NCBI GenBank assembly: GCA_965217895.1
Contig: CBDCJV010000002.1
Span: 1,664,001-1,728,000 of the forward strand
Length of the DNA: 64,000 nucleotides
Direction of reading: 5' to 3'
Origin: Waterburya sp.
GTDB lineage: Bacteria; Cyanobacteriota; Cyanobacteriia; Cyanobacteriales; Xenococcaceae
Shown here: positions 1,983 to 52,305 of the stretch, piece after piece
Numbering within the stretch: position 1 is the first letter of the stretch
Layout of the letters: each line of letters starts with the position of its first letter
Notes under the pieces: model-generated
The model's database searches: none
Seen by the model: the letters and a program-made list of their open reading frames with translations, nothing else
Told to the model about the DNA's origin: nothing
Position numbers and translations under genes: made by a program

Positions 1983-2810
1983 ATGCTTTTTATAGTAATG
2001 TTCGAGCAGATCCGAGAATTACTAACCAACTACGGTCGTATTGATGTTATTTGGTTTGATGGTAGCTGGGAACGTAGCCCTCCAGAATGGCGTAGTTCGG
2101 AATTAGGACAAATGATTCGACAGCTACAGCCAGATATACTGATTAACGATCGCTTGCCAGGACAGGGAGACTTTGCTACTCCCGAACAGTTCGTTCCGCC
2201 TCAGCCCCCCGACGGACTTTGGGAAGTTTGCCTAACTATGAACGAAAGCTGGGGTTATAACACTGCCGACAATAACTACAAATCAGCCAGAGCTTTAGTA
2301 CATACCTTGTGCGAGATAGCTGGCAAAGGAGGAAATCTACTGCTCAACGTTAGTCCGATGGGTGATAGTCAAATCCCACCAGCCCAACAAGAACGTTTAG
2401 AAGCCGTCGCCGAATGGATGTCGCGCTATGGAGAAAGTATCATCGACACTCAACCAGGACTAGAACCCTGGCAGTTTTATGGTTCATCAACTCGTAGGGA
2501 CAATTTTTACTATTTACACCTGTTAATGAAGCCCTACGAAACCATTTCTGTAAGAGGTATTCCCATCAAGCAAGTCAAATCCGTCAAAATAGTAGGAAGC
2601 GACGAACCCCTAACTTACAGCACTCGCTGTTCGATTATGGACGAGCTTAACGGACAACTCACGGACTTGAGCTTGGCTCAAGTCCCGTGTCCTCCCCAAC
2701 CCAATCCTCTGGGTGAATTGACTATCAGCGTTCCCGAATCGGTTATCGATCCCCTAGCTACTGCGATCGCCATAGAATTAGCGACCACAGTAGCGAACGA
2801 GATAAAATAA
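1983..2810 (+). pseudogene. Alpha-L-fucosidase (GH29), N-terminally truncated
   Basis: ELLTNYGRIDVIWFDG, QPDILINDR, WEVCLTMNESWGY, GGNLLLNV motifs; the N-terminal FIHWG region is absent. Confidence 0.75.
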
Positions 2811-3110
2811 GATTTTTGATGTTCCAGTAACGAAGTAAATTTCTATGTAGATAGTTGAGAAAAAAGTAGGAATATTTACTCATTATTTAACCCTTTCGGG
2901 TAAGTTTCAGCCAGGAATAGAGGAAGCCAAACATTTCCCTTCTAAACAAATGGCAGAGTCTATGGTTAAAGTTCACGAGGGAACGGCGCGAGAGTTGAAT
3001 GAGAAAGAATAGATTATCTTTATTGATTTGGAAACAGCAAATTCTGAAACGGTGTATCTTTGTTCGACACTACGAGCAAAGATCTACAATTAGCTTTTAA
3101 TCAATAATAA

Positions 3111-3479
3111 TTAATAGTTATAAATTCTATTTCTTATAGGATAATATGGGAAAATTCTGTTTTCTATATAGTAATAGCGGTCTCCCTGATTTCCCCCGCG
3201 TTGATTTCTCCAGTTTCTTCTTTGAATCGATCTTACGTCGAAATTTTCTACTCCTGAGATGTCGTATTCATTTAGTTGTTTGAGATTATCCTGAATCGAA
3301 GCTGTTTCATCCTTGCTAGAAAAACTCCAACTACCTTTACCTCCAGCACTAAGCTCGTCAAAATTAAAGCTATCGGCGGTCGTACTTTGAGCGTTGCTTG
3401 GTAGCGTAGAAAGATTAACAACTATGATTCCCAGAGCAATCGCACTTAAGTGTATTGCAGATTTGGCAGTAGTTAACAT
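3111..3479 (-). CDS. Hypothetical secreted protein
   Basis: 122-aa ORF with signal-peptide-like N-terminus ending PSNAQ. Confidence 0.55.
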   Translation of the reverse strand: MLTTAKSAIHLSAIALGIIVVNLSTLPSNAQSTTADSFNFDELSAGGKGSWSFSSKDETASIQDNLKQLNEYDISGVENFDVRSIQRRNWRNQRGGNQGDRYYYIENRIFPYYPIRNRIYNY

Positions 3480-4315
3480 AGTGTTTTAATATTTAATCTG
3501 TTATCTTCAAAACTGTAGAGAAGATTTGTTACCCCTGCATCTACATTGGGAATGATATTTAGACATATTCAAAAATACCAATAGAAGATTTTAGAAGAGT
3601 TGGCTAGTTGATGGAGAGCGATCGCTTAAAATCTTCATTCAAAACTAATTAGAAACAGTATTTATTGCTTCTCTTCCTTCCCGTTCGGCTGCTTCCCAAG
3701 TATAGAAGATATCATCTGGCTCGTAGACTGTGCCGTAGTCATCGATGATGCTGTATTTATTATAGCAGTTGTATGACGCAATCGTAGACAGCTAGTGTAT
3801 ATTAATTGATGCTGATGATTTTGATGATGCTCATGACGCGCTTGCGATCGCCAGTTTATCTTTAATTTTAGTTTGATTGAGGAAAGAGGGCGATCGCAAT
3901 ATCTATTTAAAGAAAATTAGTCTAATTCTTTACCCATTCAATATTTGATATCGTAGTTAATAATAAAGTCTAGCTCTTCGTCTGTAAAACCGTAGTGTTG
4001 AGCAAGAACTCGATCTATTTTATCTATTATTGGTTTGGACTTTTGTATTTTAAAAGATTGAGTTTCAGTTCATCCTGTATTTCTTTGGTTACGAACTAGC
4101 ATTTCGCTATTACTTTGTATATCTGTTAAATACTTTTTACCTCTCCTAAATATAGGGTTCGTGCGACCAAGTACAGCTTGCCTCTGAAACCCTTGTTATA
4201 CAAAGAATACAGGCTTCGAGTTTTTAAAATTAAGCGACCGCTAAAATATAGGTTACATAAGCTATTATTAATCTTGAATTCTTGTCTAATCAATAGTTAC
4301 ACGTATTTGAAAATA

Positions 4316-5340
4316 GGGAGCAAGTCAATTATGCAAGAACATAAGTACTACTGAGTAAAAAGAGTATTGTTGAGATAGGCGCATCGATGTTTTAAGACTT
4401 GTGGTACATTTTCAATTTTCCATTGCGCGCCTGAAATTTTTAGTCTTCGGTCTATCTGCTTAACGGTAGACTCCACCCCACCTGAAGCAATGGCACAAAT
4501 ATTTTCTGCTTGATAATAATCATAGTTGACAATGCGATCGCGATAATTTTCTAAATAAGTACAAAAGTTTTGTGCTTGTTTCTTTTTTAAAGGCGAAAAT
4601 AAAGCTAAAGTTTCATTAACTTTTCCCTGCCATAAAAGACTTTTTCCTTGCTCGATGCGTTTATTTGAACCGCCGACTTTATAAAGATTCTCTACGAGAT
4701 GAAACCAGTCTAGAATTTGTCTAGTTTCACCTTCGCGATTGAACTGGTTCATTAGATTCCAAATTCCTTGATGACCATCTGCCACACAATTCAACACACA
4801 TCAAAGGGTTGTTGATTGACCCCTTTAACTAGTTCTTCATTCTCCTGAAACCATGCCATTCTTGATTGTGAATCAATACAGACTGCTTTATAGTCTCTCC
4901 AGATACAGGATTGGCCTTTGCGTTCCGTTCTCAGACGTACTTTTCCTCCGTCAACACTAATCTCTGATACTTTCGCTTCACAGTTAGCTTCCCTAAATTG
5001 ATGTCGATGAACCAATCTCTGTTGAGTTTTCTCTGAAACTATCATTCCTGTGTATCTTGCTACATCTTGAGACGCACTCTCATAAGAGACATTGGCACTA
5101 GCTCTGAGGCAGCATTCCGTTAAATAAGGACTAATTCTTTGATGAGATTTTATTTTTAGTCTATGACCTTGTTTTTCGCTAATTGGCAGTTTTCCAATGA
5201 TACTCTTGATGTTTCTTACTCTTCCTGCTTTTGTTCCTGTAGTTTGCTGAATAAAAAAATGCCCAATTGAGGGGTAATGTATTCAAGAGTTTGTTCTCTA
5301 ATTGTCGCTTCTATTTTACCTAGACTCTCTGCTTGTTCTG
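4316..5340 (-). mobile_element. ISKra4-family transposase remnant (frameshifted, 5' truncated)
   Basis: Pieces 4348-4797, 4791-5045 and upstream: DGGKVRLRT, DGHQGIWN, ILDWFHLVENL, SGGVESTVKQIDRRLKISGAQW; T-run slip site near 5253-5259; GGGAGCA end at 4316. Confidence 0.85.
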
Positions 5341-5503
5341 CTTCAGTATCGTGAATTAGTGTAGCCGTTTCCTGTCCTTGTGACTCACGTCTGCCTGAGA
5401 AAACAACTTTTGCCCCAGCAGCCCCAAGAGCGATCGCCGTTGCTCGCCCAATTCCCGATGTTCCGCCAGTGACTAAAGCCACTTTATTTTCAAGTGTTAA
5501 CAT
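5340..5503 (-). pseudogene. Short-chain dehydrogenase N-terminal fragment fused to ISKra4 sequence
   Basis: [13 protein letters not shown]ossmann motif, then an abrupt switch to transposase sequence ([11 protein letters not shown]). Confidence 0.8.
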
Positions 5504-5717
5504 ATTTTTTTCTCCTTTTAGTTGAGGTTATTTAATGCCAAAAGCTATTAATTCAACCTACTTAAAATGTATCGAAAATCCAATTTTCGATCACTGAGAA
5601 GAAGATAAGTTGTAAACTCGACGATAGTCGAGGAATCGTCTCTATAAGTTTGACGACCAGTATATCTATATTTTTGCTATTGGAGGTCACTATGAGCAAT
5701 TGTAAAACTTAAAGTTT

Positions 5718-5879
5718 GTGAAGCAAAATCGACTATTTTCGCGATCGCACTGGCAATTAGCTAGCTGGTATACTGCTATTATTAGCCTTATTTTACTTAT
5801 CTGTGCCTTAGGAATTTATGAAGCGACTGCCCATGCCCACCGCATTAGCGTCAATCAGGAATTAGAATCTGTCATTTAA
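5718..5879 (+). pseudogene. N-terminal fragment of RppB/NrsS-type sensor histidine kinase
   Basis: Manual translation QNRLFSRSHWQLASWYTAII...(frameshift)ALGIYEATAHAHRISVNQELESV*. Confidence 0.6.
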
Positions 5880-5909
5880 CATCACTAATCGATGGCATAA
5901 GTCCCGCAC

Positions 5910-6169
5910 AAAGTACATTTTATAGTTGTTACCGCGCGCCTAAAATCTTTGACGTACATCAAGCAGTCGTGATTACTCAAAACTATCATCTACCTCGTAC
6001 TGTTTACACTTGTCGTCAGTTAGGAGTAAAGACGGTAGGTTTAAGAATCCCAGAGCGACAAATTTATAGACTGCAAGGAATGATTCCCTATTTGTTACGG
6101 CAAATGCTAGCTAACGTGGAAGCATTATGGAACATTCACATTACTCGTCCCCATCCTACTTTTTTATGA
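5910..6169 (+). pseudogene. SanA/YdcF (ElyC) family C-terminal fragment
   Basis: STFYSCYRA..IF....VVITQNYHLPRTVYTCRQLG motif. Confidence 0.7.
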
Positions 6170-6191
6170 GTTTTGCCGACACAGAAGTATG

Positions 6192-8117
6192 TTACAGCAA
6201 CAAACGTAAACCACTTAAGATTACCAAAACCGTAGATCCTTCATGTCCAAGTACCCCCAGGGGCATATTAATATTACCTGTAAAGTTAGCCATCAACAGC
6301 AAGAAAATAAATGAAAGGGCAAAAGTAATATTTTGTTTGATGATGCGATTAGCACGACGACCCAGGCTAATTGCCTGAGCTAGTTTTTCTAGACGATTGC
6401 TCATCAAAATTAGATCGGCAGTTTCGATGGCGACATCATTTCCCGCACCACCCATAGCTATACCTACTGTTGCCATAGCCAGTGCAGGTGCATCGTTAAT
6501 GCCATCTCCTACCATTGCCACGTTTTGATATTTCTGCTGTAGTTTTTGGATAGCCATCAACTTATCTTCTGGTAGAAGTTCGGCATAAACCTCTTCTATG
6601 CCCAGAGTTCGAGCAACGCTATTAGCAGTACCTTTATTGTCTCCTGTGAGCAGCACGACTTGTTCGATACCCAGTTGTTTCAATTTCTTGATCGACGCTG
6701 CTGCTTCTGGTCTAATCGTGTCAGCAACAGCTATTAAACCGATAACCCTTTCAGATTCAATCACCCAAACTACAGTTTTGCCTTCTTCTTCTAAGTGATT
6801 ACTTGCTTCAATAAATTCGCGATCTAAATAAGGAATTTCTTGCCGAACAAAAGCAGTTTTTCCTACTAGAATTGTTTTTCCTGCTACTTCACCGACAATT
6901 CCTAGACCTGGCTTTGCCTGAACATTACTGACATTTTGTAGCTGCAATTTTTTTTGCCAAGCTGCTTTGACAATTGCTTCCCCGATAGGATGTTCGGAAC
7001 GAGATTCTATGGCAGCAGCTAACTCTAATACTCGATCGCTCTTTTGTCCTTTTATGGGTATAACCTTTACTACCTCTAATTTCCCCTCCGTCAGAGTACC
7101 AGTTTTATCAAAAGCGATCGCCTTAATTTTGCCAATTTTTTCTAATTGTCCCCCATTCTTAAACAAAATTCCGGCTCTAGCACCACAAGCAATTCCCGAT
7201 AGTAGGGTCGGCATGATTGCGGCCATTAACGCGCAGGGAGAAGCTACAACCAAGAAGATTAAGGCTCGATAAATTGTCGTTTCCCAGTCCCAACCTAATA
7301 GTAGTGGCGGTAAAATTGCCAGCAAAAGTCCTAGCAAGATAATAATTCGTGCATAACTCCGCTCGAATCGTTCGATAAACTGCTGCGACGGCGGAGTTTC
7401 AGTTTGGGCTTTTTCTACTAGCTGAATTACCCGTTGAATCAGACTACTTTCAGGCGATCGATCTACTTTTACTTTTAAAGCTCCATTGCCATTGAGTGTA
7501 CCAGCATAAACTTCATCTCCAACCTGCTTATCTGCAGGAATAGACTCTCCAGTAATCGATGCTTGGTTAACATTAGTCCAACCTTCTACAATCAGACCAT
7601 CAACGGGAATTAATTCTCCTGGCTTGACTAAGACTAAATCTCCTACTTGTAATTTCGCGATCGCCATTTCTGCTGCTTCATTTCCTTTGAGGACTTTAGC
7701 GGTATTCGGTACGGTTGCCATTAGAGAACGAATATTTCGCTCTGTGCGCTCCATAGCAATGCTTTCTAAAGCCCCGCTAACAGCAAAGATCAGAATCAGT
7801 ATTCCGCCATCGACGATTAAATAATAATCCTGTTGCCATAAACCTAAGATCGCTGCACCCAAAGCTGCCACGATCATTAGTAGATCTACATCTAACTCCC
7901 TTTCTTGAAATAAAGTCGTCAATCCTTCTTTGGTGCTTTCATAACCGCCAATAACGTAAGCACCTGGAAAGATGAATAGAGCAATACCAATCCAATCCCG
8001 ATGAAGACATAACCAACCGAGGAAAATAAGAACTGCGCAGGCAGCAGCGGCTAAAGCGTCTGGATGCTTTTGTAAAATTCCTTTGAAAGAATACTTAGTT
8101 AAATATCTTTGAGCCAT
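6192..8117 (-). CDS. P1B-4-type heavy-metal (Co/Zn/Fe) translocating ATPase, CoaT-like
   Basis: TGES, SPC, DKTGTLT, GDGINDAPAL and HEGST motifs; no N-terminal metal-binding domain. Confidence 0.9.
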   Translation of the reverse strand: MAQRYLTKYSFKGILQKHPDALAAAACAVLIFLGWLCLHRDWIGIALFIFPGAYVIGGYESTKEGLTTLFQERELDVDLLMIVAALGAAILGLWQQDYYLIVDGGILILIFAVSGALESIAMERTERNIRSLMATVPNTAKVLKGNEAAEMAIAKLQVGDLVLVKPGELIPVDGLIVEGWTNVNQASITGESIPADKQVGDEVYAGTLNGNGALKVKVDRSPESSLIQRVIQLVEKAQTETPPSQQFIERFERSYARIIILLGLLLAILPPLLLGWDWETTIYRALIFLVVASPCALMAAIMPTLLSGIACGARAGILFKNGGQLEKIGKIKAIAFDKTGTLTEGKLEVVKVIPIKGQKSDRVLELAAAIESRSEHPIGEAIVKAAWQKKLQLQNVSNVQAKPGLGIVGEVAGKTILVGKTAFVRQEIPYLDREFIEASNHLEEEGKTVVWVIESERVIGLIAVADTIRPEAAASIKKLKQLGIEQVVLLTGDNKGTANSVARTLGIEEVYAELLPEDKLMAIQKLQQKYQNVAMVGDGINDAPALAMATVGIAMGGAGNDVAIETADLILMSNRLEKLAQAISLGRRANRIIKQNITFALSFIFLLLMANFTGNINMPLGVLGHEGSTVLVILSGLRLLL

Positions 8118-8151
8118 TAACTTGAACGATACTAATTACTTTAGTTAAAAT

Positions 8152-8175
8152 AAACCTTGACATTAATGTTAATGT
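8152..8175. promoter_or_regulatory. Truncated MerR(CoaR)-type operator upstream of the ATPase
   Basis: AAACCTTGACATT-N6-AATGT, after which the inverted half-site breaks off. Confidence 0.55.
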
Positions 8176-8433
8176 ATTTGGTTTCCTATCATCAAAAAAT
8201 GGCTCAGCATCCCCCACGCTCAAAATCAATTAAACTAAAAAAAAAGTTTCTACCTAGATATCGATAGAACAAGATAGCAAGAACGCAATTTATTCGTAGC
8301 CAGCTTAATCAAAAATAGTTGTCACCCCGTGAGCTGAATTTGCCGTTATTTTCAGCTTACTACCTGTTTCTTATCCCAAACTCATGTCAATTGATTAACG
8401 TACTGCGATAAATGCACGAACCAATATTAAGAA

Positions 8434-8560
8434 AACGTCAGTTCGACGAAAACATTTAAGAGGTTTAGGAAAAGGTTCAAGAAAGGAAAAATCAAGCTCT
8501 TTTCTTTGAACCTTTTCTCCTATATTTAATCGATGATTTATGACCTATTAAACTAACGTA
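8434..8560. repeat. Degenerate MITE-like palindrome (AACGTCAGTTCG family)
   Basis: End matches 42747; internal inverted repeat GAAAAGGTTCAA/TTGAACCTTTTC. Confidence 0.5.
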
Positions 8561-8855
8561 GAGCCACGCTCACGCAAGGGTCTTAAAACAGCACTATTCG
8601 GACGTTTTTAACTGCTAGGACACTCTTAAAGCCTGTAGTTTCCCACCAAGGCGCACTTGCGCATATCGTTTATGAGCGTGGGCTATACCAAATTTGGTTT
8701 CGCATCTAAAACCAGAACCACGCTGTTGTCGCCCGTCAAACTGAGGAAAGACCCCAACGTCGGCGCAAGACGCAAACAAAGGCTTTAGCCGCATGTAATG
8801 CTTTCCAATGTTGAACCCTTTAGGGAGTTGCTCGCCTTTACCTTTCCTCGATCTC
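8560..8855. repeat. GC-rich mosaic of small hairpin repeats
   Basis: Sub-motifs shared with 51714-51735, 58584-58605 and 59999-60030. Confidence 0.6.
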
Positions 8856-8913
8856 AACTAGGAAATTAATTTTACATAACTACTTATCTTTAATTGGTAA
8901 TACCTCATTTATG

Positions 8914-9192
8914 CTATGATAGTCTTTCACTAGAATTATTATTATCATTATTGTTTATTGGTAAAAGAGAGTTGGGCAGTTCTTCAAAATTGCGTTTTAC
9001 TGCCTTGCAAAATTGTCTCATTTGCGAAACTGTCATGGTAGGTTCAGCTTGTCCCTTTTCCCAGCGTCTAATAGTCGAGACTGCTACGCCGATTTCTCTA
9101 GCTAATTGTTCTTGAGAAAGCTTGACGTTTAATCTCAATCTTTTGAACGGAGAATTGGTTTCTTGATGCTGAGATTTTTTTGGTCTGGTCAT
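8914..9192 (-). CDS. XRE-family helix-turn-helix regulator
   Basis: LSQEQLAREIGVAVSTIRRWEKG. Confidence 0.85.
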   Translation of the reverse strand: MTRPKKSQHQETNSPFKRLRLNVKLSQEQLAREIGVAVSTIRRWEKGQAEPTMTVSQMRQFCKAVKRNFEELPNSLLPINNNDNNNSSERLS

Positions 9193-10514
9193 AGTAATAA
9201 ATTACGATAGAACTGGGTATAACAAATCTCAAACAGTGAACAATATACATATTGAATTTATTTTATTACAATATGCTATATATAGTGTAAAGCTAATAAC
9301 TAATGTTTTTTAGCTGCTACTAACTATAAACTCTGATGCTTATATGGCAATATAGTTTTGCGCTGCTGTTTAGATAAAATAAGAGTAATTACTGAATTAG
9401 AAAATATATTTGCCAAATACTATCAAATAAATAGCATTATTTAGCTCTAAAATAGATGAAGAAATAAATCTAGGGATAATAATCCGCTTTATTTATCCGT
9501 TCAATTTTGTCCTATATTAACAAATAAAAAAAATAACACTATTAGCAAAAACACCTAAATTTGTAAACTTTGATATTAAAGTCAATCTAATATTCAACCA
9601 TAAATCACGTAGCATACAGCGGATATATTTAAGTAAATTCAGTAATTATTCTGAAGCGGTTTATCAAACAAACTGATATCCAAACTTGAAAATAAACAAC
9701 TGATTGATAGTTATAAATAATTAATCTAAAAAATAATCAGCGTTGGCTGTTTTGCAAATTTACCTAATTTTTTAATGATTTAATAGAACTTAAGTTATTT
9801 AAGTTTTTTGGCTCTTAATAAGCATCGATACTTTTTATTTATTTAGGCAAATTTGCGTATTTTAAAACTAATTTCTTCTGCTGTTTAAAAACTATCTTAA
9901 TCATAAAGAATTAGAGTAATACAAACATCTATAAAACGTCTCAATTTGACCCTAGACTAAAGAGATAACAGAGACTCTAACTTTCGTTGCTCTGTTGAGT
10001 ATATATTTCTAAGACTTTAGCAACTGTTTATAAAGTAAATGTTAAGGATGGAAAAGTGTCGAAAATGGAGAGGCGGAGGAGTAGAAGAGATAGAGAAGTA
10101 TTATTCATCACCCCACTACCTTACAACTCTATTTACTCTTTACCGGTTTACTACCCAGTACTCCAAATACCTCATTACCCCAAATACGACCCTACCCAAC
10201 GGCAAAAAATTTTATTTTCTTTTTATAAACAGTCTCTAATTAACAATACAGATGCTTGATTACGGTTCTTAAAATGGCTAATCAAAATATTAATAGTCGT
10301 AGAGAAAAGCTGCTTTTTTTTAGCAATGATGTAAATAAGCAGCTTGCTTCATGTTCTCAAAGTCAGTATTTTATACTGTAAAAATGTTGAGTTATTTATG
10401 GAGTTTCCCTATTAAGTTGGGTAGCTAAAAAAGTTTATTAGGATATAAGATGCTTGGTGTTTATTTTGCCATCTAAAAACCAACTGTTCCTAGCATTGCC
10501 TTAAAGCTACTAAA

Positions 10515-11240
10515 TTACTGATATTTAACAATTCGTGCAAAGTTAGCTGCTTCCAAGCTTGCTCCTCCGACTAATGCTCCATCAATTTCTGGCTGTGCCA
10601 TAATTTCGTCAATATTACCTGGTTTTACAGAACCGCCATACTGAATTGAAATATCTTTATTATCAAGCTGTTGGCGAATAATACCGATGACACGGTTTGC
10701 TTCTGTAGATTCGCAAGTATTGCCTGTACCAATCGCCCAAATTGGCTCATAAGCAATAATCAAATTACTTTGGTCTACTTCTAGCAAACCTTTTTTTAGC
10801 TGATTGATAATAACATTCTCTGTTTTACCAGCATCTTTCTGTTCTTTAGTTTCTCCAACGCAGAGAATAGGCTTTAGTTTGTATTTTTGAGCAGCCTTTA
10901 ATCGCCAGTTTACTGTCTCATCGGTTTCATTAAAATACTGTCGTCTCTCGCTGTGACCAATAACTACATAGTCTACGCCGATTTCAGTCAGCATTTCTCC
11001 TGAGATTTCTCCAGTGTAAGCACCTTCTAATTCCCAATGAACGTTTTGCGCACCCAGCTTGACTCTACTGCCATGTAAGTTTTTAGACATTACAGTAAGA
11101 GAGGTAAAAGGCGCACACAAAATAATTTCGCGATCTTCTGCGGTATCCTCAATCTCGGATTTGAACTCTTGCACAAATTTCAAGGACTCTGCCTGATTTT
11201 TGTGCATTTTCCAATTGCCAGCAATAACTATTTTTCGCAC
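10515..11240 (-). CDS. tpiA: Triosephosphate isomerase
   Basis: [36 protein letters not shown]. Confidence 0.98.
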
Positions 11241-11309
11241 AATATAAAAAACATTTCAAATTCTCTGCAAATCTCAGTTTAAAGCTTTGTGGGGAGTTAA
11301 AGCTAGTAC

Positions 11310-24519: not shown

Positions 24520-26109
24520 TTAAGCAAAGTCATTAAAGCTATAAAGGCGATCGCTATTGCCAAAATAGAATGCCTCTACGTTTTCTACGATCAAAGTTGA
24601 ATCAGAATCATGAATGATAACCTGATTATCAGATGAACCACGAGCGATCGCGTAGTCGTCTAGATTGCCCCACAGCTTGAGTACATCATAGTCTTTACCG
24701 CCATCAATCGAAACGGTCGCTGTAAAGCCGCCGATCTCAAAAGTGTCATTGCCACCATCGCCAAAAATAGCAGCATTTTTAATTGAGCCTGACTGATTTG
24801 CTGACAAAGATTCTTCAGTGAATGAATTAGAATTAACTATGGCTGCTTGGAAATAGTCATTGCCTTGACCCAATCTAATCTCACTGTCTTCAATGCCAAC
24901 AGTGCTGCCGTAGCCAATAATGCGATCGCATCCCTGACCTGTCTGGATCTTACCGCCTTTGATGCCCACTAAACCATAGCCAATAATAAGATCGTCTCCC
25001 TCTCCCATTTTGATGACTCCCTCACTGTTATCAATACCAATGGTGATCGCTCCTGAATTATCAGCAATGGCATTGGTGTTAATTTTCACATCTGAATCAT
25101 TAGCAGTAGCCACGGCATCGGCATCAGCATTGGCATCCACGGCAGAATTGTTTACTGCAATGCCAATAATAGCGTCATTTCCTTGACCTGTCGCGATCGC
25201 ACCTTGGTTGACAATTCCCACCGCACTACCCTGAGAAATCGCCAGAGATGCTGCATCTGCTGTGGCAGTGGCTACGTCGTTAGCCATAGATTCGGCTTGA
25301 GAAATGGCTAAAGAATTACTTGAGCTTCTATTGTTTGCCAAGCCGACAATTGTATCGTTGCCTTGACCCGTAAAGATTGCACCAGAATTAATTATTCCCA
25401 AAGCGTTTGTATTACTAATAGCCGTTGCTTTAGATGTGCTTTGGGAAATAGCTGTCTTAATTTCATTGAGCGTTTTAGAATCTACAGCAGCGTTATTGGC
25501 AAATGCAGTAGCCTCAGCCTCACTCAAAGCCCAGGTACTCGCTACACCAACAATAACGTCATCACCTCGACCTGTGGCGATCGCGCCCAGATTATCAATG
25601 CCGATAGCCAAACTATTAACGACGCTAACGGACTCACTCTTGGCACTGACTGAAGAGTTATCAGCAAAAGCTGATTCAGCTTGAGAAATAGCTATTGAAA
25701 CACCCAACGCTGAAGCATTAGCTATGCCCAAGATTGCGTCATGACCTTTGCCTGTAGTAATCTTACCCGTATTGCTAATGCCGATGGCAAGTGCATCCGC
25801 GCTAGATTCGCTATTGGCATTAGCCGTAGCCAGATCATCTAAAGTTAATTGAGCCTCCGAAGTAGCGGTAGCATTACCAACGGTCAGAGCAGGCTCCGTC
25901 CGTTTAGAAGTCCCCGTGCTGTTCCGTTTAGGAACAGCTTCATGCGGGACGTGGCGGAGTAATCTCTGACTCGAAGCATTAGCTACACCAAGAATAATGT
26001 CATTACTTTTGCCTGTGGCGATCGCACAATTATTATTGAGCAGTGTATTAATCAGATTATTTTGAAGCCCGGTAACTACAATATCTTTAAATAATATTTT
26101 TTTGGACAT
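24520..26109 (-). CDS. Ala/Ser-rich repeat protein with RTX-like GxGxD repeats; carries an 87-bp in-frame insertion
   Basis: Repeated GIxNxGxIxTGxGNDxIxG; C-terminal ENVEAFYF. Confidence 0.75.
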   Translation of the reverse strand: MSKKILFKDIVVTGLQNNLINTLLNNNCAIATGKSNDIILGVANASSQRLLRHVPHEAVPKRNSTGTSKRTEPALTVGNATATSEAQLTLDDLATANANSESSADALAIGISNTGKITTGKGHDAILGIANASALGVSIAISQAESAFADNSSVSAKSESVSVVNSLAIGIDNLGAIATGRGDDVIVGVASTWALSEAEATAFANNAAVDSKTLNEIKTAISQSTSKATAISNTNALGIINSGAIFTGQGNDTIVGLANNRSSSNSLAISQAESMANDVATATADAASLAISQGSAVGIVNQGAIATGQGNDAIIGIAVNNSAVDANADADAVATANDSDVKINTNAIADNSGAITIGIDNSEGVIKMGEGDDLIIGYGLVGIKGGKIQTGQGCDRIIGYGSTVGIEDSEIRLGQGNDYFQAAIVNSNSFTEESLSANQSGSIKNAAIFGDGGNDTFEIGGFTATVSIDGGKDYDVLKLWGNLDDYAIARGSSDNQVIIHDSDSTLIVENVEAFYFGNSDRLYSFNDFA

Positions 26110-28966: not shown

Positions 28967-29072
28967 ATGGATATTCACAGTGCTAGTCAAGCCAGAGCCA
29001 ATCTGTTTAAGTTATTAGAGCAAGTTAATCAAGAGAGTAAGCCTTGTATCATCACTTCCCGTAAGGGGGATG
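28967..29072 (+). pseudogene. Phd/YefM antitoxin truncated by an ISAs1 end
   Basis: MDIHSASQARANLFKLLEQVNQESKPCIITSRKGD, then IS inverted repeat; GTAC-N8-GTAC upstream at 28933. Confidence 0.8.
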
Positions 29073-29500
29073 TAGGGCTGTTTCATTCTCTAAAAAAGAA
29101 ATGCGATCGCGAATAAGTATATTTACTATTCCTATCAATGGCACAAAGAAAGTAATAATGGCAAATTATGGCTTAAATAACTGATTGCCTCGGTCATAGA
29201 ATCGAAACCATGAACTCTCAGTAGGTTAATAACCCAACTTTTAATCAAACAGATGTTTGTGGATGCTTTGCCGTGAAGTTGAGGGCTGTTATCATCTTGA
29301 GTTACGACATCCTTAAACGGCACTCAATACGGCGAACCTGCGTTGTCGTCCGTGCCTCCCCAATGAAGACGATTTTCAACAGCGTGATTGGACAAGCTGC
29401 TTGCGAAGCAGCGTCCCTCACGCTCAATATTGTCGGTACACCAAACAGCATTTTCTGAGCAAAAGAGCTTTTATAAACTCTTTGAGCGACGGTCAATTGA
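29073..29500 (-). mobile_element. ISAs1-family remnant (3' end)
   Basis: TAGGGCTGTTTCATTCT end; closely similar to 52011-52254; ENRLHW/KDVV.EDNS motif interrupted by mini-elements. Confidence 0.85.
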
Positions 29501-43278: not shown

Positions 43279-43318
43279 TCTTTAACTGTAAACTGTAATA
43301 CTTACTCTTAGCGTTCTC

Positions 43319-44890
43319 ATGAATTCTGAAAACCCTTATATTCCCGAATCAGACAATACCAATTCTAAATCTATCGAGCTAGACACTGAACTACAACCAG
43401 ACCAAAAAGAATCAATTTCCCAAAGCTATACTGATGCTTGGTCTGAACAAGACGATGTGATTGATGTGACTATAGATTCAGAACTTTCAGCCGATGATTC
43501 TCTCCCAGTGGATAATTCTCAGGGTAAAGTTGAACCTTTGGATGTTTTAGAGCAGTCAGAATTAAATCAGGACGAAATATCAACTAAACCCAGCAGTGTC
43601 AATAGTGAACAGTCAACTACTAGCTTAGAATTAGCCGAGTCAGAGATTAGTTTGCCGTACAATGACGAAGTAATCTCCGAGCGGTGGTCAAGTAATGCTG
43701 ATAGTGAGCCAGAATCTACTGCTGCAAAAAGCTCTAAAGCTGAACCAGAATTATTTGTAGATAGCTGGTTAGATGAACCTGAGTCAAACATATCAGCCAA
43801 CGGCAATCCCGTTAAAGAAAATCAGACTTCAGATGATCGAGAGATAATCAGCTTAAAAGAGCAAAAAGCTAATCTGCAAAGTGAAATCAAAGCATTACAG
43901 CAACAAAAAGAAAAATTACTGTTACAGCAGGTAAAAGATATCCAACAAAGCATCGGACAGATGATTGAAGAGGGAACAAAAGAACTACATGAGCGCAAAA
44001 CGACTCTGCAAATTGAAATTGAAAAACTAGAACGGCGTAAAGAAAGAATCAATCAGGAGATGAGACGTAATTTTGCAGGTTCATCCCAAGAGTTAGCCCT
44101 TAGAGTTCAAGGGTTTAAAAACTATTTGGTCGGTAGTCTGCAAGATTTAGCCACAGCAGCAGAAAAACTAGAGTTAGAACCCAAAGAGGTTTCTTCCTCT
44201 AGAAGCCGTGGAAGAATTAGCGACAGAGAAAGAGATAATGCTCGCAGAGATGAGCCACAAAGAGATAGAGGTAGGCGAGGCGAGAGGGAACTTCGCCGAA
44301 CCAGAAACACCTCAGACCAAGCAGCCTCTGCACAAGCTCAGTTTTCTGAACCCACTTTTAGCGATCAAAGTAGGCGCATTCGTCAACTATTGGATAAATA
44401 TCGTAACAGTCCCGATTATTATGGCTCTCCTTGGCAATTACGCCGTACATTTGAAGCCACTCACGCCAAAAGAGTCCAAGATTGGTTTTTCTCTCAAGGT
44501 GGTAGAGGTACAGTTGACAGTATGGGAAGCCGTCTGCAAAATATTCTGGTAGCCTCAGCAGTAGTTTCAGTTCTCCATAGTCTGTATGGGGATAGCTGTA
44601 GAGTTCTGGTGTTGACAGATACGCCCGAAAACTTAGGTGAATGGCGTAAAGGATTACAAGACTGTTTAGGTATTTCGCGAAGTAGCTTTGGTGCTAATCG
44701 AGGCGTAGTGTTGTTTGATTCTCCCGAAGTTTTGGTTCAAAGAGCCGAGCGTTTGATTCAAGACAAGTTATTACCGATGATTATCATTGATGAGACTGAA
44801 GAAATATTGAACTTATCTGTTCTCAAGTTCCCTCTTTGGCTAGCGTTTGCTTCTGGGGCTAAGTCAACATCTTCTAATTATTTGTATTAA
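43319..44890 (+). CDS. DUF3086 protein with long acidic N-terminus
   Basis: AGSSQELALRVQGFK, PDYYGSPWQLRRTFE. Confidence 0.8.
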   Translation: MNSENPYIPESDNTNSKSIELDTELQPDQKESISQSYTDAWSEQDDVIDVTIDSELSADDSLPVDNSQGKVEPLDVLEQSELNQDEISTKPSSVNSEQSTTSLELAESEISLPYNDEVISERWSSNADSEPESTAAKSSKAEPELFVDSWLDEPESNISANGNPVKENQTSDDREIISLKEQKANLQSEIKALQQQKEKLLLQQVKDIQQSIGQMIEEGTKELHERKTTLQIEIEKLERRKERINQEMRRNFAGSSQELALRVQGFKNYLVGSLQDLATAAEKLELEPKEVSSSRSRGRISDRERDNARRDEPQRDRGRRGERELRRTRNTSDQAASAQAQFSEPTFSDQSRRIRQLLDKYRNSPDYYGSPWQLRRTFEATHAKRVQDWFFSQGGRGTVDSMGSRLQNILVASAVVSVLHSLYGDSCRVLVLTDTPENLGEWRKGLQDCLGISRSSFGANRGVVLFDSPEVLVQRAERLIQDKLLPMIIIDETEEILNLSVLKFPLWLAFASGAKSTSSNYLY

Positions 44891-44894
44891 ATAA

Positions 44895-45002
44895 CTAATG
44901 TTACGCAAATCAATGAGAAATCAATAGTTTGAACAAGGTATGAAAAAAGATCCATAAACCCCTTTTCCCAATCTTAACAAATACATTAGTGCGTAACATC
45001 AG
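44895..45002. mobile_element. 108-bp MITE with 8-bp target duplication
   Basis: Inverted repeat CTAATGTTACGCA/TGCGTAACATCAG; TTAAATAA at 44887-44894 and 45003-45010. Confidence 0.75.
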
Positions 45003-45013
45003 TTAAATAAAAA

Positions 45014-46669
45014 CTAAAAACTAAAGGTAGTCCTAATTGTGCCAACAACCAAATCGTCAGAGTTAAGAATATCGGTATCGGGTTTGGTAATCCAAACTAC
45101 CCCTGGAGTAATAGCAATATTGTCATTAACCTGATATTGATAAAAAGCTTCTAGATGTAGGGAGCGTTGACTATCTTCGCCAAAACTATCCGTGTTGATG
45201 GTTGAATTGGTTACTGTCGATTCTGAACCCACTATAATTCCTGCCAAGTTACCCTCCTTGCCTAAGTCTGGTAATGCCAAGGTTGCAGCCCAGTTCCAGA
45301 TATTTTGAGTGCCACGCTCAATTTGTTGATTGAGATTGCTAAGATTATTAACCTTACTAAATCCTCCCCAGCCACCAAAGACTAGGCGATCGCTAATTGA
45401 CCAAGATAGCTCTAGCCCATAGGAATTGCTGACCGTTTGTGCTTCCTCGCCCAGTAATTTTGCAGTTTGAGATTGCAAATTAGCTCGATTGGTTCCTGTT
45501 TCGGTGTCGCTTTGATCGTAACTATGAATATAGGTGGCAGCCAATTTTAGACTGTTTATTGGGGCGATCGCAATTTGTCCCAGCGCGCTATATGAACCGT
45601 TAAACAAGCCACTGCCTGGATTTGAGTCATCAGTGTTAGAAGCCAAATAACCCGCACTAATTTCAATTTGCTCAATCGGACGACCCACAATCCCTAACCC
45701 CGCATTTTTAGATCGATTGTAAATAGGATTGCGAGTACCGAATCTGGAAATTGCACCCGAACCTCCATCTCCATCTAAGACGTTTATTGTATTGGCAATA
45801 TCCTTTGCCTCTATTCCTGTTGCTCCTAAAATAAAGTCAACTTTATCACCTATGCCAAAAGTATATTGCAAGACTTCCAATTGAAAATCATCTTGTTCTG
45901 GCTCGGTAAAAGCCAATTCACCCTGAAAAGTGCCAATTTCCTCGGAAAAGCCAGGAAATTGCGCACTAGACAATCTAGTTAATAGTAGATCGTCTCCCCC
46001 AAAGCTAGTTTCTATATTTAATCGTAATCTACTACCTAAAATCGTACTGTTCTCGCGATCGCCAGATAAAAGGCTACCTAGCCCAAAAATCGCCTCTCCC
46101 TGAAGTTTACTGGTAGTAGAAAATTGCGTAGCTTCTAAATCTTGCAATCTTGCCTGAGAGCCGTCTGTTTTCCCTTTAAGAATGGCTAAATCTGACTGAA
46201 ACTCCTGCATTAACTGTAAAACAGTATCTACATCTGTTTGAGGAATGCTGTCAGAATTGCTAATTAAACTTTCGATTTTATTTAAACAACTATTTAATCC
46301 TGCTGCAAACTCAGAACGAGAAATAGGTTGTTCGCCTCGAAAAGTGCGATCGCTATATCCGCTAATGCAACCGTAACGTTCGGTCAAGTTTTTTAATGCT
46401 GCGTAAGCCCAATCTGTAGGCTTGATATCTCGTAATCGATCGACACTATTAATTTGAGTCAACAACAATGTCCTAGTGTTTTTTTCTGAGTAAAAATTGC
46501 TAAAATTTTCTGCTTGACGGTGCAAAATTTGTGGAATAGATTGTTTTTGCTGACTTAAATTAACGTCGAGCAACTCTGGTAATTCAGCAGCTTCAACACT
46601 CGAAGATAACGATAGATAAGTAGCACAAATAGGCACTATTAGCCTAGTTTTTAACCAAAATCTAGACAT
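45014..46669 (-). CDS. SLH-domain/OprB-type cyanobacterial porin
   Basis: DIKPTDWAY, SRSEFAAGLN, QFSTTSKL, terminal RTTFSF. Confidence 0.92.
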   Translation of the reverse strand: MSRFWLKTRLIVPICATYLSLSSSVEAAELPELLDVNLSQQKQSIPQILHRQAENFSNFYSEKNTRTLLLTQINSVDRLRDIKPTDWAYAALKNLTERYGCISGYSDRTFRGEQPISRSEFAAGLNSCLNKIESLISNSDSIPQTDVDTVLQLMQEFQSDLAILKGKTDGSQARLQDLEATQFSTTSKLQGEAIFGLGSLLSGDRENSTILGSRLRLNIETSFGGDDLLLTRLSSAQFPGFSEEIGTFQGELAFTEPEQDDFQLEVLQYTFGIGDKVDFILGATGIEAKDIANTINVLDGDGGSGAISRFGTRNPIYNRSKNAGLGIVGRPIEQIEISAGYLASNTDDSNPGSGLFNGSYSALGQIAIAPINSLKLAATYIHSYDQSDTETGTNRANLQSQTAKLLGEEAQTVSNSYGLELSWSISDRLVFGGWGGFSKVNNLSNLNQQIERGTQNIWNWAATLALPDLGKEGNLAGIIVGSESTVTNSTINTDSFGEDSQRSLHLEAFYQYQVNDNIAITPGVVWITKPDTDILNSDDLVVGTIRTTFSF

Positions 46670-46885
46670 TGCAAACGATCCTCACTTACACCAACATAAA
46701 TCAGAATTCTTTAGCTATTAATAATCAGCAACTACTAAAGAATTTTGATGATTATTTCATCTCAAACCATTTTGGCATTGCTATAAACTAATTGGGAGAA
46801 AAAAGTAGAATTATACATTTATTTTTGTGGACAAACATAGATTCTGCGATCGCAAATCTAAAAATATGCAGCTAATTGTTAATCT

Positions 46886-47617
46886 CTATTCTGTTTGCGG
46901 ATAACGTTGCCATAAATCTGTTTTTTGCCTGAGACTTTGATGATCGCCATTACCTAAGATTAAATGATCCAATAGCGGAATATCCAAACATTGCGAACCC
47001 TGGAGTAATTGTTCAGTCAAATAAATATCTTCACTCGAAGGCTCTAAGTTCCCAGATGGATGATTATGAGCAATAATCAGCTTAGTTGCACCTTGTCGTA
47101 TAGTCTCTCGAAAAACTTCACGAGGATGAATCAATGTCTCTGTAGCTGTGCCAATAGTTAAGATTTTCGTCGCCAGCAAACGATTTTTTACGTCCAGCAT
47201 CACTATGGCAAATCGTTCTTGATCTTGCCACATTAAGTCATTACTTAAAACCGCAGCAGCCGAAGCGGGACTATCGACGGCGACTCTTTCATTGGGTCGA
47301 AATTTAAAGGTGCGTTTGCCTAACTCCACAGCAGCAACAATAGTCGCAGCTTTAGCAGGGCCAATGCCAGGAATACGCATCAACTCGCGAGGATTCACGT
47401 CTCGCAACATATCCAAAGGCGATCGCTGGTATTTACCTAATTCTTGTAATATGTGTTGCCCTAAGCCAATTGCTGATAAATTACCTTTTGTTTGTCCAGT
47501 ACTAATCAAAATAGCCAAAAGTTCTGCTTCAGTTAGATTTTTCGCGCCTACAGCCATTAACCTTTCACGGGGACGCTCACTGATAGGCAAGTCAGCAATT
47601 CTGAGGCTATAGGTCAT
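46886..47617 (-). CDS. radC: RadC (JAB-domain) protein
   Basis: ERPRERL, GIGPAKA, HNHPSG, LLDHLI. Confidence 0.95.
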
Positions 47618-47693
47618 GACAAATTTTTAAATCAGATAATATTTTTGTAACATAAATATAGCTTACAAAATACTAGCCTTCAATTTTCCTCAT

Positions 47694-48230
47694 CTAATCT
47701 TTAATTAATTCCACCGCATCCCTGCCATCAATTTCATTGACATAAACCTTGACTTTTTCTTCTGAGGCGGTAGGCAGCATTTTGCCAACAAAGTCTGGAT
47801 GGATGGGTAATTCGCGATGTCCCCTGTCTACAAGTACCGCTAATCTAATTACTTGAGGTCTACCATATTCAGTGACGGCATTTAGCGCAGCACGAATAGT
47901 ACGACCTTTATAGATTACATCATCGATTAGCACCACAGTTTTACCCGTTAAGTCAAGAGGAATTTTGGTTTGGGCGGGAATACGAGTCCGAATCTTATCT
48001 AGATCATCACGATAGAAGGTAACATCGATCGCACCAACGGCAACGGAAGTGTTTTCTAAAATCTCAATCTGATTGGCTAACAAGTGAGCTAAAGGAACAC
48101 CTTTGGTATGAATACCCAACAAAACTACGTTAGATAAATCCCCTGATTCTTCAATAATTTGCGAAGCCAAACGATTTAAGGTACGGCGAATTTCTTCAGC
48201 AGATAAAATTGTAACGACTTTGGCTGACAT
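47694..48230 (-). CDS. pyrR: PyrR regulator/uracil phosphoribosyltransferase
   Basis: [26 protein letters not shown]. Confidence 0.95.
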
Positions 48231-48315
48231 TTATTAAGAGTGAACAGCGAACACTTGCTATGGTATTTATGGATTTATTATATAGCTCACCTGTTGGCTA
48301 ATTGTAGAACTCCCA

Positions 48316-49329
48316 ATGAATCAAACAAAACAAGTAGTCCTTAATTCGCCCTTAGATATGCACCTTCATTTTCGCGAGGGAGTAATGGCGCAAACAGTCA
48401 TTCCCCTTAGTTCATACTCGTTTGCAGGTGGGGTAGTAATGCCCAACCTTGTTCCTGCGGTGAATAATTTAGAGCGGTTGCAGGGATATATAAAGGAAAT
48501 TAAATCAATTATTGGCAAAGATGTATTTGAACCCTACATGACGCTGTTCTTTCAGGAATATAGCTATCAAGAGCTTGAGCAACTTAAGCCGTATATTCTT
48601 GGAGTCAAGCTTTATCCTGCGGGAGTTACCACCAATAGCGAAGATGGAGTATCTACCTTGAGTCAGGCAGAAACTACAATTAAGCATTTAGAAGAGTTGG
48701 AAATCCCGCTAATGGTACACGGGGAAACTCATGGCTTTGTGATGGACAGAGAAAAACTGTTTCTGCCTATCTTTGAACATCTGGCACAGAAATTTCCTAA
48801 GCTAAAAATTATCATGGAGCATATTACCACTGCCGATGCAGTTTTATTGCTAGATAATTATGAGCATCTTTATGCCACCGTAACCCTTCATCACTTGATC
48901 ATTACCTTAGATGACTTAGCAGGGGGATTACTTAGACCTCATTTATTCTGTAAACCCATCGCCAAACGTCCTGAAGACAGAGAAGCTTTAGTCAATGCAG
49001 CCATCAATGCCCATCCTAAACTAATGTTTGGTAGCGACTCCGCACCTCACCCGATTGATAAAAAAGAAGCTTGTGGCTGTGCTGCGGGGATTTTTACTGC
49101 GCCGATCGCACTACAGGCTTTGGTAGAATTATTTGAACAGCATAATGCGATCGCGAACTTACAAGCTTTTGTTTCTGATAATGCTCAACGTATCTATAAT
49201 ATTACGCCACCACAAAAATCTGTCACCTTAGAGCCTTTAGCCTATAAAGTTCCTAACCAGTATGGCAAGGTTGTACCCATGTTTGCTAATCAAGAGCTTC
49301 CTTGGTCTATTACCAAGGTGTCAATTTAA
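48316..49329 (+). CDS. pyrC: Dihydroorotase (class II)
   Basis: [33 protein letters not shown]. Confidence 0.95.
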
Positions 49330-49633
49330 GAGACTACGCTGTTTATCAACTAGTACTAAGCTTTTAGCCTTTAGCTATTAGCTCTTAGCTTTTTAATCGG
49401 TATGAACTGTAATTTCCCATTTTCTTAGGTTGGGGATAAAAGTAAAAGACGTATACTAAATTGAATTTCTAAAACTTTTTACATCTATTCAGCCTAAATT
49501 TGCAATATTTAAATGGGGCTAATGTATAAAAAGCATATCTGATTAATTATTATTGAGCTTTAGTAAGTTTTGCTACAAAATTTAGCCTAAACCAATGTCA
49601 TTCTGGGATAAAACAAGTTAAAGAAACCCAGAA

Positions 49634-49783
49634 ATGAGAAATTTAGCACCATATTTACTTCCCTCAATTTTAGGACTAGTCGCAGGCATTGGACACGGTA
49701 TTACTTCTCACAATCAAAATCTTCCTTTTTCTTTAGCAGACCAAGTTATTGAATCAGTCTCGCCACATCAATCTTTCAATTAA
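49634..49783 (+). CDS. Small 49-aa membrane/secreted protein (not in the ORF track)
   Basis: MRNLAPYLLPSILGLVAGIGHGITSH...SFN*. Confidence 0.45.
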   Translation: MRNLAPYLLPSILGLVAGIGHGITSHNQNLPFSLADQVIESVSPHQSFN

Positions 49784-49873
49784 GTAAATTTTTGTAAAAA
49801 GTAGCGGTTGTTACAATTATTTCTGTAATAATAAAAGATACAGAAATAATTTAGAACTGTGAGGCTTCGATCA

Positions 49874-50080
49874 ATGAATGTACAGACATCCCGCGAGAAT
49901 ACATCTGTTTTAGATAGAGTAATTGGATTCTCTCTAGCAGCTTTTTCTATGTTTGTAGTAGGATACACTGCTACTCGTGCTTATTTAGATCAACCTCAGA
50001 CTCAAAATGTAGCACCTGCAAACTCTGATCTTGTGATTCCTCATCAAGCTCAACTATGGAGTGAGTTTGGAAGTAGGTAA
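49874..50080 (+). CDS. Small single-TM hypothetical protein
   Basis: Hydrophobic VIGFSLAAFSMFVVGY. Confidence 0.5.
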   Translation: MNVQTSRENTSVLDRVIGFSLAAFSMFVVGYTATRAYLDQPQTQNVAPANSDLVIPHQAQLWSEFGSR

Positions 50081-50187
50081 TTTATCATTCTAGCTATTAA
50101 GAATACTATTAAAAGCTGAGAGCGATCGCATTTCTTCAACTGCGATCGTTTTTTAATAAGCTAAGATTTGTAATTTAGCTTAGAAAA

Positions 50188-50676
50188 ATGGGTAAAGAAA
50201 TCGAAAGAAAGCATCTAATCAAAAAAGATGAATGGCAGTCTTATAAGCAATATTCATCAGTTACAGGAACAAAATACTGTCAGGGTTACATCCCTACAGG
50301 TAACACGACGACAGTTAGACTGAGAACTATTGATAAGCAAGGCTATATAACAATCAAAGGTGAAACCACAGGCTATACTCGTTCAGAATTTGAATATCCT
50401 ATCCCGCTAAAGGATGCTGAAGAGATGCTAAGTACCTTATGTCTTAAACCCTTGATCGAAAAGATTAGGTATAAAGTCAATCAGAATAATTTAACTTGGG
50501 AAATAGATGAATTTTTAGGAGACAATGCGGGATTAATTATCGCCGAAGTAGAATTAGAAAGCGAAGACCAGCAAATAGATTTACCTCATTGGATCGATAA
50601 AGAAGTCAACGATAAAAAATATTTTAATTTCAGCTTGGCTAAATATCCCTATAGTCAATGGCAAGATAAATCATAA
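50188..50676 (+). CDS. CYTH-domain protein
   Basis: EIERK, RSEFEY, WEIDEF, AEVEL. Confidence 0.92.
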   Translation: MGKEIERKHLIKKDEWQSYKQYSSVTGTKYCQGYIPTGNTTTVRLRTIDKQGYITIKGETTGYTRSEFEYPIPLKDAEEMLSTLCLKPLIEKIRYKVNQNNLTWEIDEFLGDNAGLIIAEVELESEDQQIDLPHWIDKEVNDKKYFNFSLAKYPYSQWQDKS

Positions 50677-50728
50677 ATAACGTTTTGTTGTTCTAAACAT
50701 CTAAAATTTTAGAAAACCCAAGCTCAAT

Positions 50729-52305
50729 TAGGACTTACGCAGTCTAACGAGTTTCGCCCCCCCAGACCCCCTGCTGGGTAGGGCTGTTTCATTCTAGAGC
50801 TAAAGTGCGGTAAATTGATATAAAACCTAATTTAACCGCTCAATAACTTTAAAAAACTTTGATAAAAGCTTAATTGACTATTTGAAACAAATACCTGATG
50901 AGCGAAAAGCAGGTGAATGAATGAGCATCTCAGTATACTCACAATAGTCAAGGTCAATGGATTGCAATTGATGGCAAAAGTTTGAAAAATACTGTCAACG
51001 ACTGTTATGGACAACAGCAAAACTTCGTCATGATGGTTTCGGCTTTGACTCATGAAGGCGGGGAAATTTTAGGCATAAAAGTTAGGGAAAATAAGAAATA
51101 AAGTGAGATTGTCGCCGTGCAAGACTTATTAGAATTGCTGCATTTAAAAGGAGTGGTGTTCACGATGGATGCTCTACATTGTCAAAAAAAACAGTCTCAG
51201 CAATTATCGACAGTGGTAATAACTACCTAATTGTGGTTAAAAGAAATCAAAAAACATTACATCGGCAAATTGAGCGGAGGAAATGCGTGGGTTTCCCGCG
51301 CTTATTCCACTCCGCTGTTGAATTTCAAGCAACAAGTACAAAGGCGATTAGTTGCTTTGAGCAGATCGAGAAGACGAGAAATCGACTAACTCATCGAACT
51401 GTAGAAGTATTGGCTCCTCCATCAAACATTGATTCTCAATGAGTTGGAGTTCATAGTATCATCAAAATTTTCCGTTCGCGAACAAGAGGTAATCACGATT
51501 ACGAATCGGATTCGGCGACTTATTATATTAGTTCTTTACCCAACTCCTTCGGAGTTAAGTAGCAAGTAGCAGCCGCTCCACGCGGCTCGACTTTCCTTCG
51601 CAAAGGCGGCGAACGACCCGTTCGCGCAGATAGCAATTAAGAAAAACTCCGAAGTTGGATATGCAGCCTCTTCATTGATGAGGAAAAGGTGAAAAAATAA
51701 TTCAACTCTTGAATACATGCGGGCAAGCCCTTTGTCTGACACAGGAGCTATCGCTCCATGTCGTCGTCTTCGACGACTTTGCAAGCTTTGCTTGCTGTGG
51801 CAGAGGTTGAACTTGCAGACGCGCTTCGCGTCTGGCCGTTGCGGAGCAACGTCGGCAGCCTCCAGGCTGCGCTACTTGTTATCTGCTACTTGTGAACAGC
51901 AACTTCTTGGCTTATTCCCCAAGGTATTGGCCGACATTGGGGTATCGAGAATCGTTGGCATTGGGGAGGCACTCAATACGGCGACGCAGGTTCGCCGTAT
52001 TGAGTGCCGTTTAAGGATGTCGTAACGAAAGAAGATAACAGCCCTCAACTTCACGGCAAAGCATCCACAAACATCTCTTTGATTAAAAGTTGGGTTATTA
52101 ACCTACTGAGAGTTCATGGTTTCGATTCTATGACTGAGGCAATCAGTTATTTAAGCCATAATTTGCCATTATTACTTTCTTTGTGTCACTGATAGGTGTA
52201 GTGAATAGATTTATTCGCGATCGCATCTTCTATTTTGAGAATGAAACAGCCCTACCAAACTTGGGGGGCTAGGGGGGCAAAACTCGTTAAACTGCGTAAG
52301 TCCTA
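50729..52305. mobile_element. TAGGACTTACGCA-type MITE split by an ISAs1 insertion
   Basis: Complementary arms at 50729-50771 and 52263-52305. Confidence 0.75.
50779..52254 (+). mobile_element. ISAs1-family element with inactivated transposase
   Basis: Inverted repeats TAGGGCTGTTTCATTCT/AGAATGAAACAGCCCTA; AIDGK, MDALHCQKKT, YYISSL, HWGIENR motifs; stops and three insertions. Confidence 0.9.

Follow-up and report, generated by a model that had tools for sequence, protein, structure and literature searches.

Small dispersed repeats (SDRs) of cyanobacteria are the closest known kind of element to the family described here, a likeness drawn from general descriptions of SDRs rather than from their sequences or from the structure of SDR4-6. 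SDR1 to SDR8 of Nostoc and its relatives, 21 to 27 bases long, were reportedly described by Elhai et al. in 2008 (Genome Res 18:1484); they are said to be tiny and gene-less, to keep their structure by compensatory change, and to insert into other repeats and into one another. We know of no mobilizer for them, and from their description onward it has been an open question by what means hairpin repeats of fewer than 50 bases spread in cyanobacteria. We analyzed a 64,000-nucleotide stretch of the genome of Waterburya sp. (GCA_965217895.1, contig CBDCJV010000002.1, positions 1,664,001 to 1,728,000; below, the window), in which a first-pass annotation had picked out four short hairpin elements, E1 to E4 (Table 1). 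They belong to a family of 45-base insertions that is real and widespread, and of a known but unexplained kind. We found no description of this family in the literature searched, and neither PMC4476775, on a tRNA-Leu intron, nor PMC2884548 had a bearing on it; the text and supplements of Elhai et al. (2008) may list longer repeats.

According to a passage of PMC5861425 that cites earlier work, SDRs are confined to Nostocaceae. The 45-base family is, like SDRs, gene-less, keeps its fold by compensatory change, inserts precisely into repeats, and nests. It differs from them in its length of 42 to 45 bases, in its rod with a bulge and a 5x2 loop, in standing often in frame in genes, and in its occurrence in plasmids of the Pleurocapsales (Stanieria and Chondrocystis) and across the order, where it reaches 11 families or more. 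Stanieria cyanosphaera PCC 7437 is among its carriers.

Palindrome-associated transposable elements (PATEs) and 52-base, terminal-only derivatives of IS200/IS605 elements are presented in part of PMC3119063 as single-palindrome units that are possibly mobile. The 45-base family resembles them in lacking a transposase and a target duplication, in being palindromic, and in its size of about 50 bases. Unlike PATEs, it has no fixed motif adjoining its 5' end and shows instead A/T at two target positions and a rarity of T at +1; its two ends pair together, and they have no likeness to the IS200/IS605 ends at 21 Y1 transposase loci. As to guide pairing, the family shows covariation between element and target, with no consistent rule found. 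Repetitive extragenic palindromes (REPs) and REPINs, with their RAYT, are treated in passages of PMC3116915 and PMC3733652 as hairpins that an HUH enzyme, acting in trans, is believed to mobilize in the form of single-stranded DNA. The 45-base elements are also hairpins for which movement of this type is proposed below, but they carry no GTAG/CGTC tag at the hairpin foot (profile of 187 elements) and do not consist of two copies of a single conserved repeat. In a nonexhaustive look at 30 open reading frames (ORFs) near paired copies and at the 21 Y1 loci, no flanked RAYT gene was seen; the 30 ORFs, which lie beside or between paired copies, were housekeeping genes and one tnpB. GTAG repeats do occur among the targets of the family. 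The palindromic elements of Rickettsia, as described in a section of PMC10969869, are about 150 bases long, encode a conserved peptide, and lie in frame in unrelated genes. The 45-base palindromes are likewise tolerated in frame in unrelated genes, but add 15 residues, in any open frame and in either orientation. They further differ from MITEs (miniature transposable elements with terminal inverted repeats) in having two unpaired bases per end and no target duplication. Integron attC sites have an RYYYAAC / GTTRRRY core, with the crossover within the stem; the 45-base family has no such core and inserts whole.

Precise insertion, fold and spread of the family

The sequences, strands, and lengths (45, 42, 45, and 45 bases for E1 to E4) proved to be as the first-pass annotation had given them, and its claim of mobility was borne out by empty alleles. 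For E1, a homolog of its host, an alpha-L-fucosidase of family GH29 (locus L047, 86% protein identity), has a 45-base gap exactly at the element, and the 15 residues that the annotation had expected to be foreign to GH29 orthologs were absent from all nine aligned homologs. Contigs of two sequencing runs from other studies (X3 and X4) skip 2649-2695 exactly, with no shared letters. The E4 site was found in six empty and eight filled copies of a 48-base host repeat, with an unambiguous junction and no duplication, while the site shared by E2 and E3 was empty in the ISAs1 copies of three relatives. All four elements are thus real, precise, and duplication-free insertions. Beyond the window, an empty homolog was found for 61 of 221 sites, representing 36 independent sites, and at 29 of these the junction lay where predicted, with no gap.

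Read on the strand of the first-pass annotation, sixteen members can be aligned gaplessly. Each starts with R-C, followed by a five-pair stem opened by an invariant G-C, a one-base bulge, a single Y-R pair, a 5x2 internal loop, a seven-pair inner stem, and a seven-base loop; the element ends in T-Y, so that its ends read RCG...CTY invariantly. The 42-base form lacks the unit of bulge plus pair. The asymmetric internal loop noted in the first pass is a feature of the family fold but not of E3, which is a perfect hairpin of 17 pairs. In the core alignment, from which one misplaced row (L077) was left out, 90.4% of cells were paired, a value reached by none of 500 shuffles, and slid controls gave at most 42.8%. 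The shape is fixed and the sequence variable, the fold being kept by compensatory change.

A geometry filter derived post hoc from the family itself found 29 copies in the chromosome and none in each of five Markov controls. A strict scan of the genome gave 24 matches, 14 of them of 45 bases, and a search for insertions with empty alleles recovered 10 distinct 45-base sequences. Loose structural scans were rejected, as they did not outperform shuffles or control ends (one gave 128 matches, against 113 to 130 in shuffles), as was a loose ungapped filter, which returned mostly noise. The genome-wide covariance-model search proposed in the first pass did yield additional copies: there were 1009 matches, covering all 39 genomes of the genus, and at the level of the phylum 13 of 141 genomes were matched. 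With an end-blind model, matches were patchy within the order, occurring in 28 of its 141 genomes searched. From the fetched loci, which are a score-biased part of the model matches, we recovered 271 insertions with 216 distinct sequences in 115 independent site clusters from 46 genomes. One exact pattern of the commonest subtype had no match in viral contigs.

Further hairpins turned up in these searches. Six loci of one complete genome (L284-L289 of G019) gave model matches of 76 to 82 bases, which are probably members of the family whose inner loop has received another insert. The source genome also holds hairpin insertions of 25, 37, 47, 48, 51, and 56 bases with empty alleles; their ends are unlike those of the 45-base family, and many are nested in one another.

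Target preference and reading frame

The first-pass annotation had proposed a common target, CTTA^CCCAA, which did not hold for the family: CCCAA lies 3' of only 2 of the 115 independent 45-base sites and CTTA or TTAA 5' of one, and the E4 site reads CGCC^CTAAA. The 42-base element of the ISAs1 type is known from two sites, the ISAs1 site and a second host repeat, and at each of them CCCAA follows it; a preference of this subtype is possible. What survived of the proposed site preference is looser, namely an A/T at +4/+5 in 94 of the 115 sites. Measured against a local background of 0.30, it was present in 81 of 98 sites (P = 2e-27), and T was rare at +1. The A/T preference was also seen at unstructured sites (18 of 23), and the targets fold better than their shuffles (55% versus 36%). 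Site preference, then, exists but is loose. Element and target also covary: when the first base of the element is G, +1 is G in 19 of 21 sites, and when it is A, in 16 of 94; elements that end in T have a purine at +1 in 37 of 41. One hot-spot host receives G-starting elements before C, and sub-family history may explain part of this covariation. In the source genome, 21 insertions amount to six site clusters, most copies being in a few host repeats.

All lengths first reported were multiples of three, which had been taken as a sign of selection for the reading frame. Such selection was not demonstrated; the length is set by the fold in coding and noncoding copies alike. Comparing the two classes in the source genome, as the first pass had suggested, gave no contrast: the 6 of 58 copies that lie in long open frames are all of 45 bases, and 49 of the 52 noncoding copies also have a length divisible by three. 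Moreover, in the ISAs1 transposase, E2, E3, and the 42-base form introduce a TGA in frame, within the HWVKDV motif. The open fraction of the six frames of the element was 0.68, compared with 0.62 in shuffles (highest shuffle, 0.66), and a stop is present in about a third of the six frames. Of 64 sites in relatives, long open frames hold 22, 12 in sense and 10 in antisense orientation. Twenty of these 22 hosts were scanned with Pfam, and 17 had matches, including HisRS-like, methionine synthase, UvrD, AcrB, and SNF2 proteins and four TnpB. The fold itself gives the multiple-of-three length, which allows some copies to survive within genes; family-level selection for it is possible.

Probable folding strand, predicted circle joint and proposed mode of movement

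On the strand read in the first pass, pair 20:30 is C-A in 16 distinct inner stems, G.T in two, and A-C in one; on the opposite strand it becomes a T.G wobble, and it is the only recurrent nonstandard pair. The opposite strand also folds slightly better on average. Because pair 20:30 is a T.G wobble there, the RAG...CGY strand is probably the one that folds.

Joining the 3' end of this strand to its 5' end would close the stem with c(GYRA)g, a GNRA tetraloop. GNRA was found at the joined ends in 43 of 47 distinct matches of the end-blind model R2; the exceptions were two GTTA, one ATGA, and one offset. It was also found at 18 of another 20 loci, taken from other families and the named plasmids, of which one was GTCA and one was not recovered. 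Since tetraloop closure accounts for every invariant end base, we infer, with moderate confidence, that 3'-5' joining gives a 45-base dumbbell circle capped by c(GYRA)g, which would be opened between Y and R at insertion.

Two observations touch on the joint. The end combination G...C, which gives the loop GCGA, was nearly absent (2 of 216 element sequences), a scarcity that would fit a need for unpaired terminal bases or for keeping CG away from the joint. One related hairpin starts with TCGACAG and has another internal loop (five copies, among them G000:C2 2137908 and 3090749). Its joint would read GAGA; it was left out of the family, as an exact empty site was found in none of the five copies, and it probably extends beyond 45 bases.

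Our preferred reading, to which we assign a probability of roughly 0.4, is that the elements move as closed circles of single-stranded DNA through an HUH enzyme like TnpA of IS200/IS605, supplied in trans. An enzyme encoded elsewhere would excise the RAG...CGY strand from the donor site; the 3' end of the folded strand would be joined to its 5' end, giving the dumbbell; and the circle would then be opened at the joint and pasted scarlessly at a loose A/T (+4/+5) target. Many copies are passengers, multiplied within other repeats and insertion sequences. Parts of PMC10055086 describe circular single-strand intermediates and scarless, duplication-free excision for TnpA of IS200/IS605, and the 52-base single-palindrome derivatives (PMC3119063) may be mobile. 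Sites are also enriched in elements of this IS200/IS605 family. Of 104 site clusters, 12 are in tnpB, while TNB-domain counts of 2 to 48 per genome imply at most about 2% of the DNA, and outside the genus 8 of 16 matches lie within or adjoining tnpB or iscB. In a post hoc comparison of 12 related genomes, the share of genome-private sites rises with the count of Y1 TnpA (rho = 0.69, P = 0.012).

A good deal weighs against this reading. Copy number is related to the Y1 TnpA count only weakly (rho = 0.35), no Y1 TnpA match was found in a complete genome with 67 copies or in another with 32, and the source genome has a single Y1 TnpA fragment. At the 21 Y1 loci tested, out of about 280 Y1 matches in the genus, no inner hairpins were found except inside two whole elements. 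Neither a fixed target of four or five bases nor a simple guide-pairing rule was found, and no single rule of element-target pairing emerged. The inserts in tnpB face both orientations, and their excess there may reflect tolerant sites and hitchhiking alone. Along one complete chromosome (G019) there was no strand clustering. In assembled sequences, permuted or junction copies were limited to one chance-like match, and no circle or gene-bearing autonomous parent was seen; orphan halves are decayed or nested copies. Lastly, GNRA loops and wobble pairs suit RNA equally well.

Two features of the tnpB hosts may be recorded here. A single tnpB open frame (L428, 57-1430, in G016) carries two separate in-frame copies of the element, and several insertions (L242, L254, L273, L445, L451, L460, L465, and L468) are grouped at the 3' end of a tnpB or iscB gene. 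The 3' end of these genes is the usual place of guide-RNA scaffolds.

A bolder reading would see in the closed 45-base dumbbell, with its GNRA cap at the point of cutting and joining, a mobile unit complete in itself and recognized almost entirely through its shape. It would insert without a scar almost anywhere that two A/T bases are close by, add 15 residues to proteins, pass from one cyanobacterial family to another aboard IS200/IS605 elements, and owe its movement to an enzyme or mode new among insertion sequences. We regard this as doubtful.

GNRA-closed loops and U.G wobbles are typical of RNA, and the c(GNRA)g closure and the T.G/U.G bias of the family would be at home in a route in which RAG...CGY is cut from transcripts, closed by GNRA, and written back by a reverse transcriptase, for example that of a group II intron. 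Such a route was reportedly suggested for SDR repeats. Reverse transcriptases were present in all five genomes tested, including both of those with no Y1 match. Against it, Rfam 15 covariance models gave no match at E <= 1 in 15 loci, and there is no ribozyme-sized sequence; the in-gene copies face both ways in nearly equal numbers; and most junctions have neither duplications nor shortened ends. We know of no enzyme that cuts a transcript so precisely at both ends, and we consider the RNA route unlikely.

Another host or phage enzyme could read the bulged hairpin by its shape, for example a tyrosine recombinase that reads folded single strands, in the manner of integron integrases, or a type IA topoisomerase. 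The family keeps its shape while its letters vary, and it has an extrahelical base and an asymmetric loop; attC sites are likewise conserved in shape and have an extrahelical base. The presence of the family in every genome of the genus regardless of Y1 content speaks for such an enzyme, as does the coexistence in the source genome of several further families of small elements that have empty alleles. However, no GTT/AAC core is present, the hairpin is inserted whole rather than split, no such gene was seen between paired copies, and the patchy spread at the family level suits a mobile partner better than a core gene. This explanation, too, strikes us as improbable. Template switching or gene conversion among hairpin repeats combined with passenger spread, with no dedicated mechanism, is strongly disfavored when taken alone: template switching does act on the elements (the perfect hairpin of E3, inverted loops, and a 51-base form), the insertions of the source genome do fall into few clusters and host repeats, and the targets do fold better than shuffles, but the 115 independent site clusters have identical exact ends, copies lie in frame in unrelated genes, the unpaired end bases are invariant, and the A/T preference persists at unstructured sites.

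With movement as a single-stranded circle as the preferred reading, the family makes the question of how such small hairpins move testable, as it supplies 216 distinct sequences with exact ends at more than 100 independent sites and predictions of an active strand and a circle joint (GY^RA). The inference of the folding strand from wobble asymmetry, the prediction of a GNRA circle joint, and the enrichment in IS200/IS605-family elements are new. Shape-read, scarless insertion of 45 bases, if true, would continually supply proteins with 15-residue insertions, and it might offer a minimal DNA-writing tool once the enzyme is known.

The four elements and their hosts

The host genome is that of a cyanobacterium rich in the highly iterated palindrome HIP1, with 5798 GCGATCGC counted in the chromosome. 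Positions in Table 1 are those of the window.

Table 1. The four hairpin elements of the window and the features that carry them
Feature	Position	Strand	Description
E1	2650-2694	-	45-base element present once, in frame within the GH29 remnant; folding strand probably minus
E1 host	1983-2810	+	5'-truncated alpha-L-fucosidase (GH29) open frame
E4	25908-25952	+	45-base element; folding strand probably plus
E4 host	25878-25970	-	48-base hairpin repeat interrupted by E4
E2	29317-29358	-	42-base form, decayed; folding strand probably minus
ISAs1-derived remnant around E2	29072-29377 (approximate)	-	Family name taken from the empty homolog
E3	51966-52010	+	45-base perfect hairpin, 17 pairs
ISAs1-derived repeat carrying E3	50775-52270 (approximate)	+	Multicopy repeat; HWVKDV motif split by the insert

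The first-pass annotation had placed E2 and E3 at a common ISAs1 site. The site is indeed the same, but the two represent one old insertion inherited by nine ISAs1-derived copies in the source genome, and not two arrivals. The inner loop of E2 is inverted relative to seven other copies, and at this site in relatives 42-, 45-, and 51-base forms all occur. E3 appears to have arisen from the 42-base form when one arm was copied onto the other by a template switch, and its length of 45 would therefore come from template switching, not from frame selection.

E4 is present genome-wide in six exact and two variant copies, every one in a single host repeat. The 93-base nest formed by the 48-base host hairpin and E4 lies in frame in an ORF of 529 residues (24520-26109). 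This ORF is alanine/asparagine-rich and has no Pfam match, and the nest sits near its start.

E1 contributes its 15 residues close to the C terminus of the GH29 frame, which lacks the first ~150 to 170 residues of its homologs; the missing part is absent from the genome as searched with tblastn. A search of 30 relatives gave no GH29 match outside the source genome, and the gene is probably mobile or decaying. It is nevertheless present, without E1, in close strains represented by the sequencing-run contigs. In one of these runs (X4), a different, 27-base hairpin-like insertion lies in the same GH29 gene at window position 2765, about 70 bases 3' of the E1 site.

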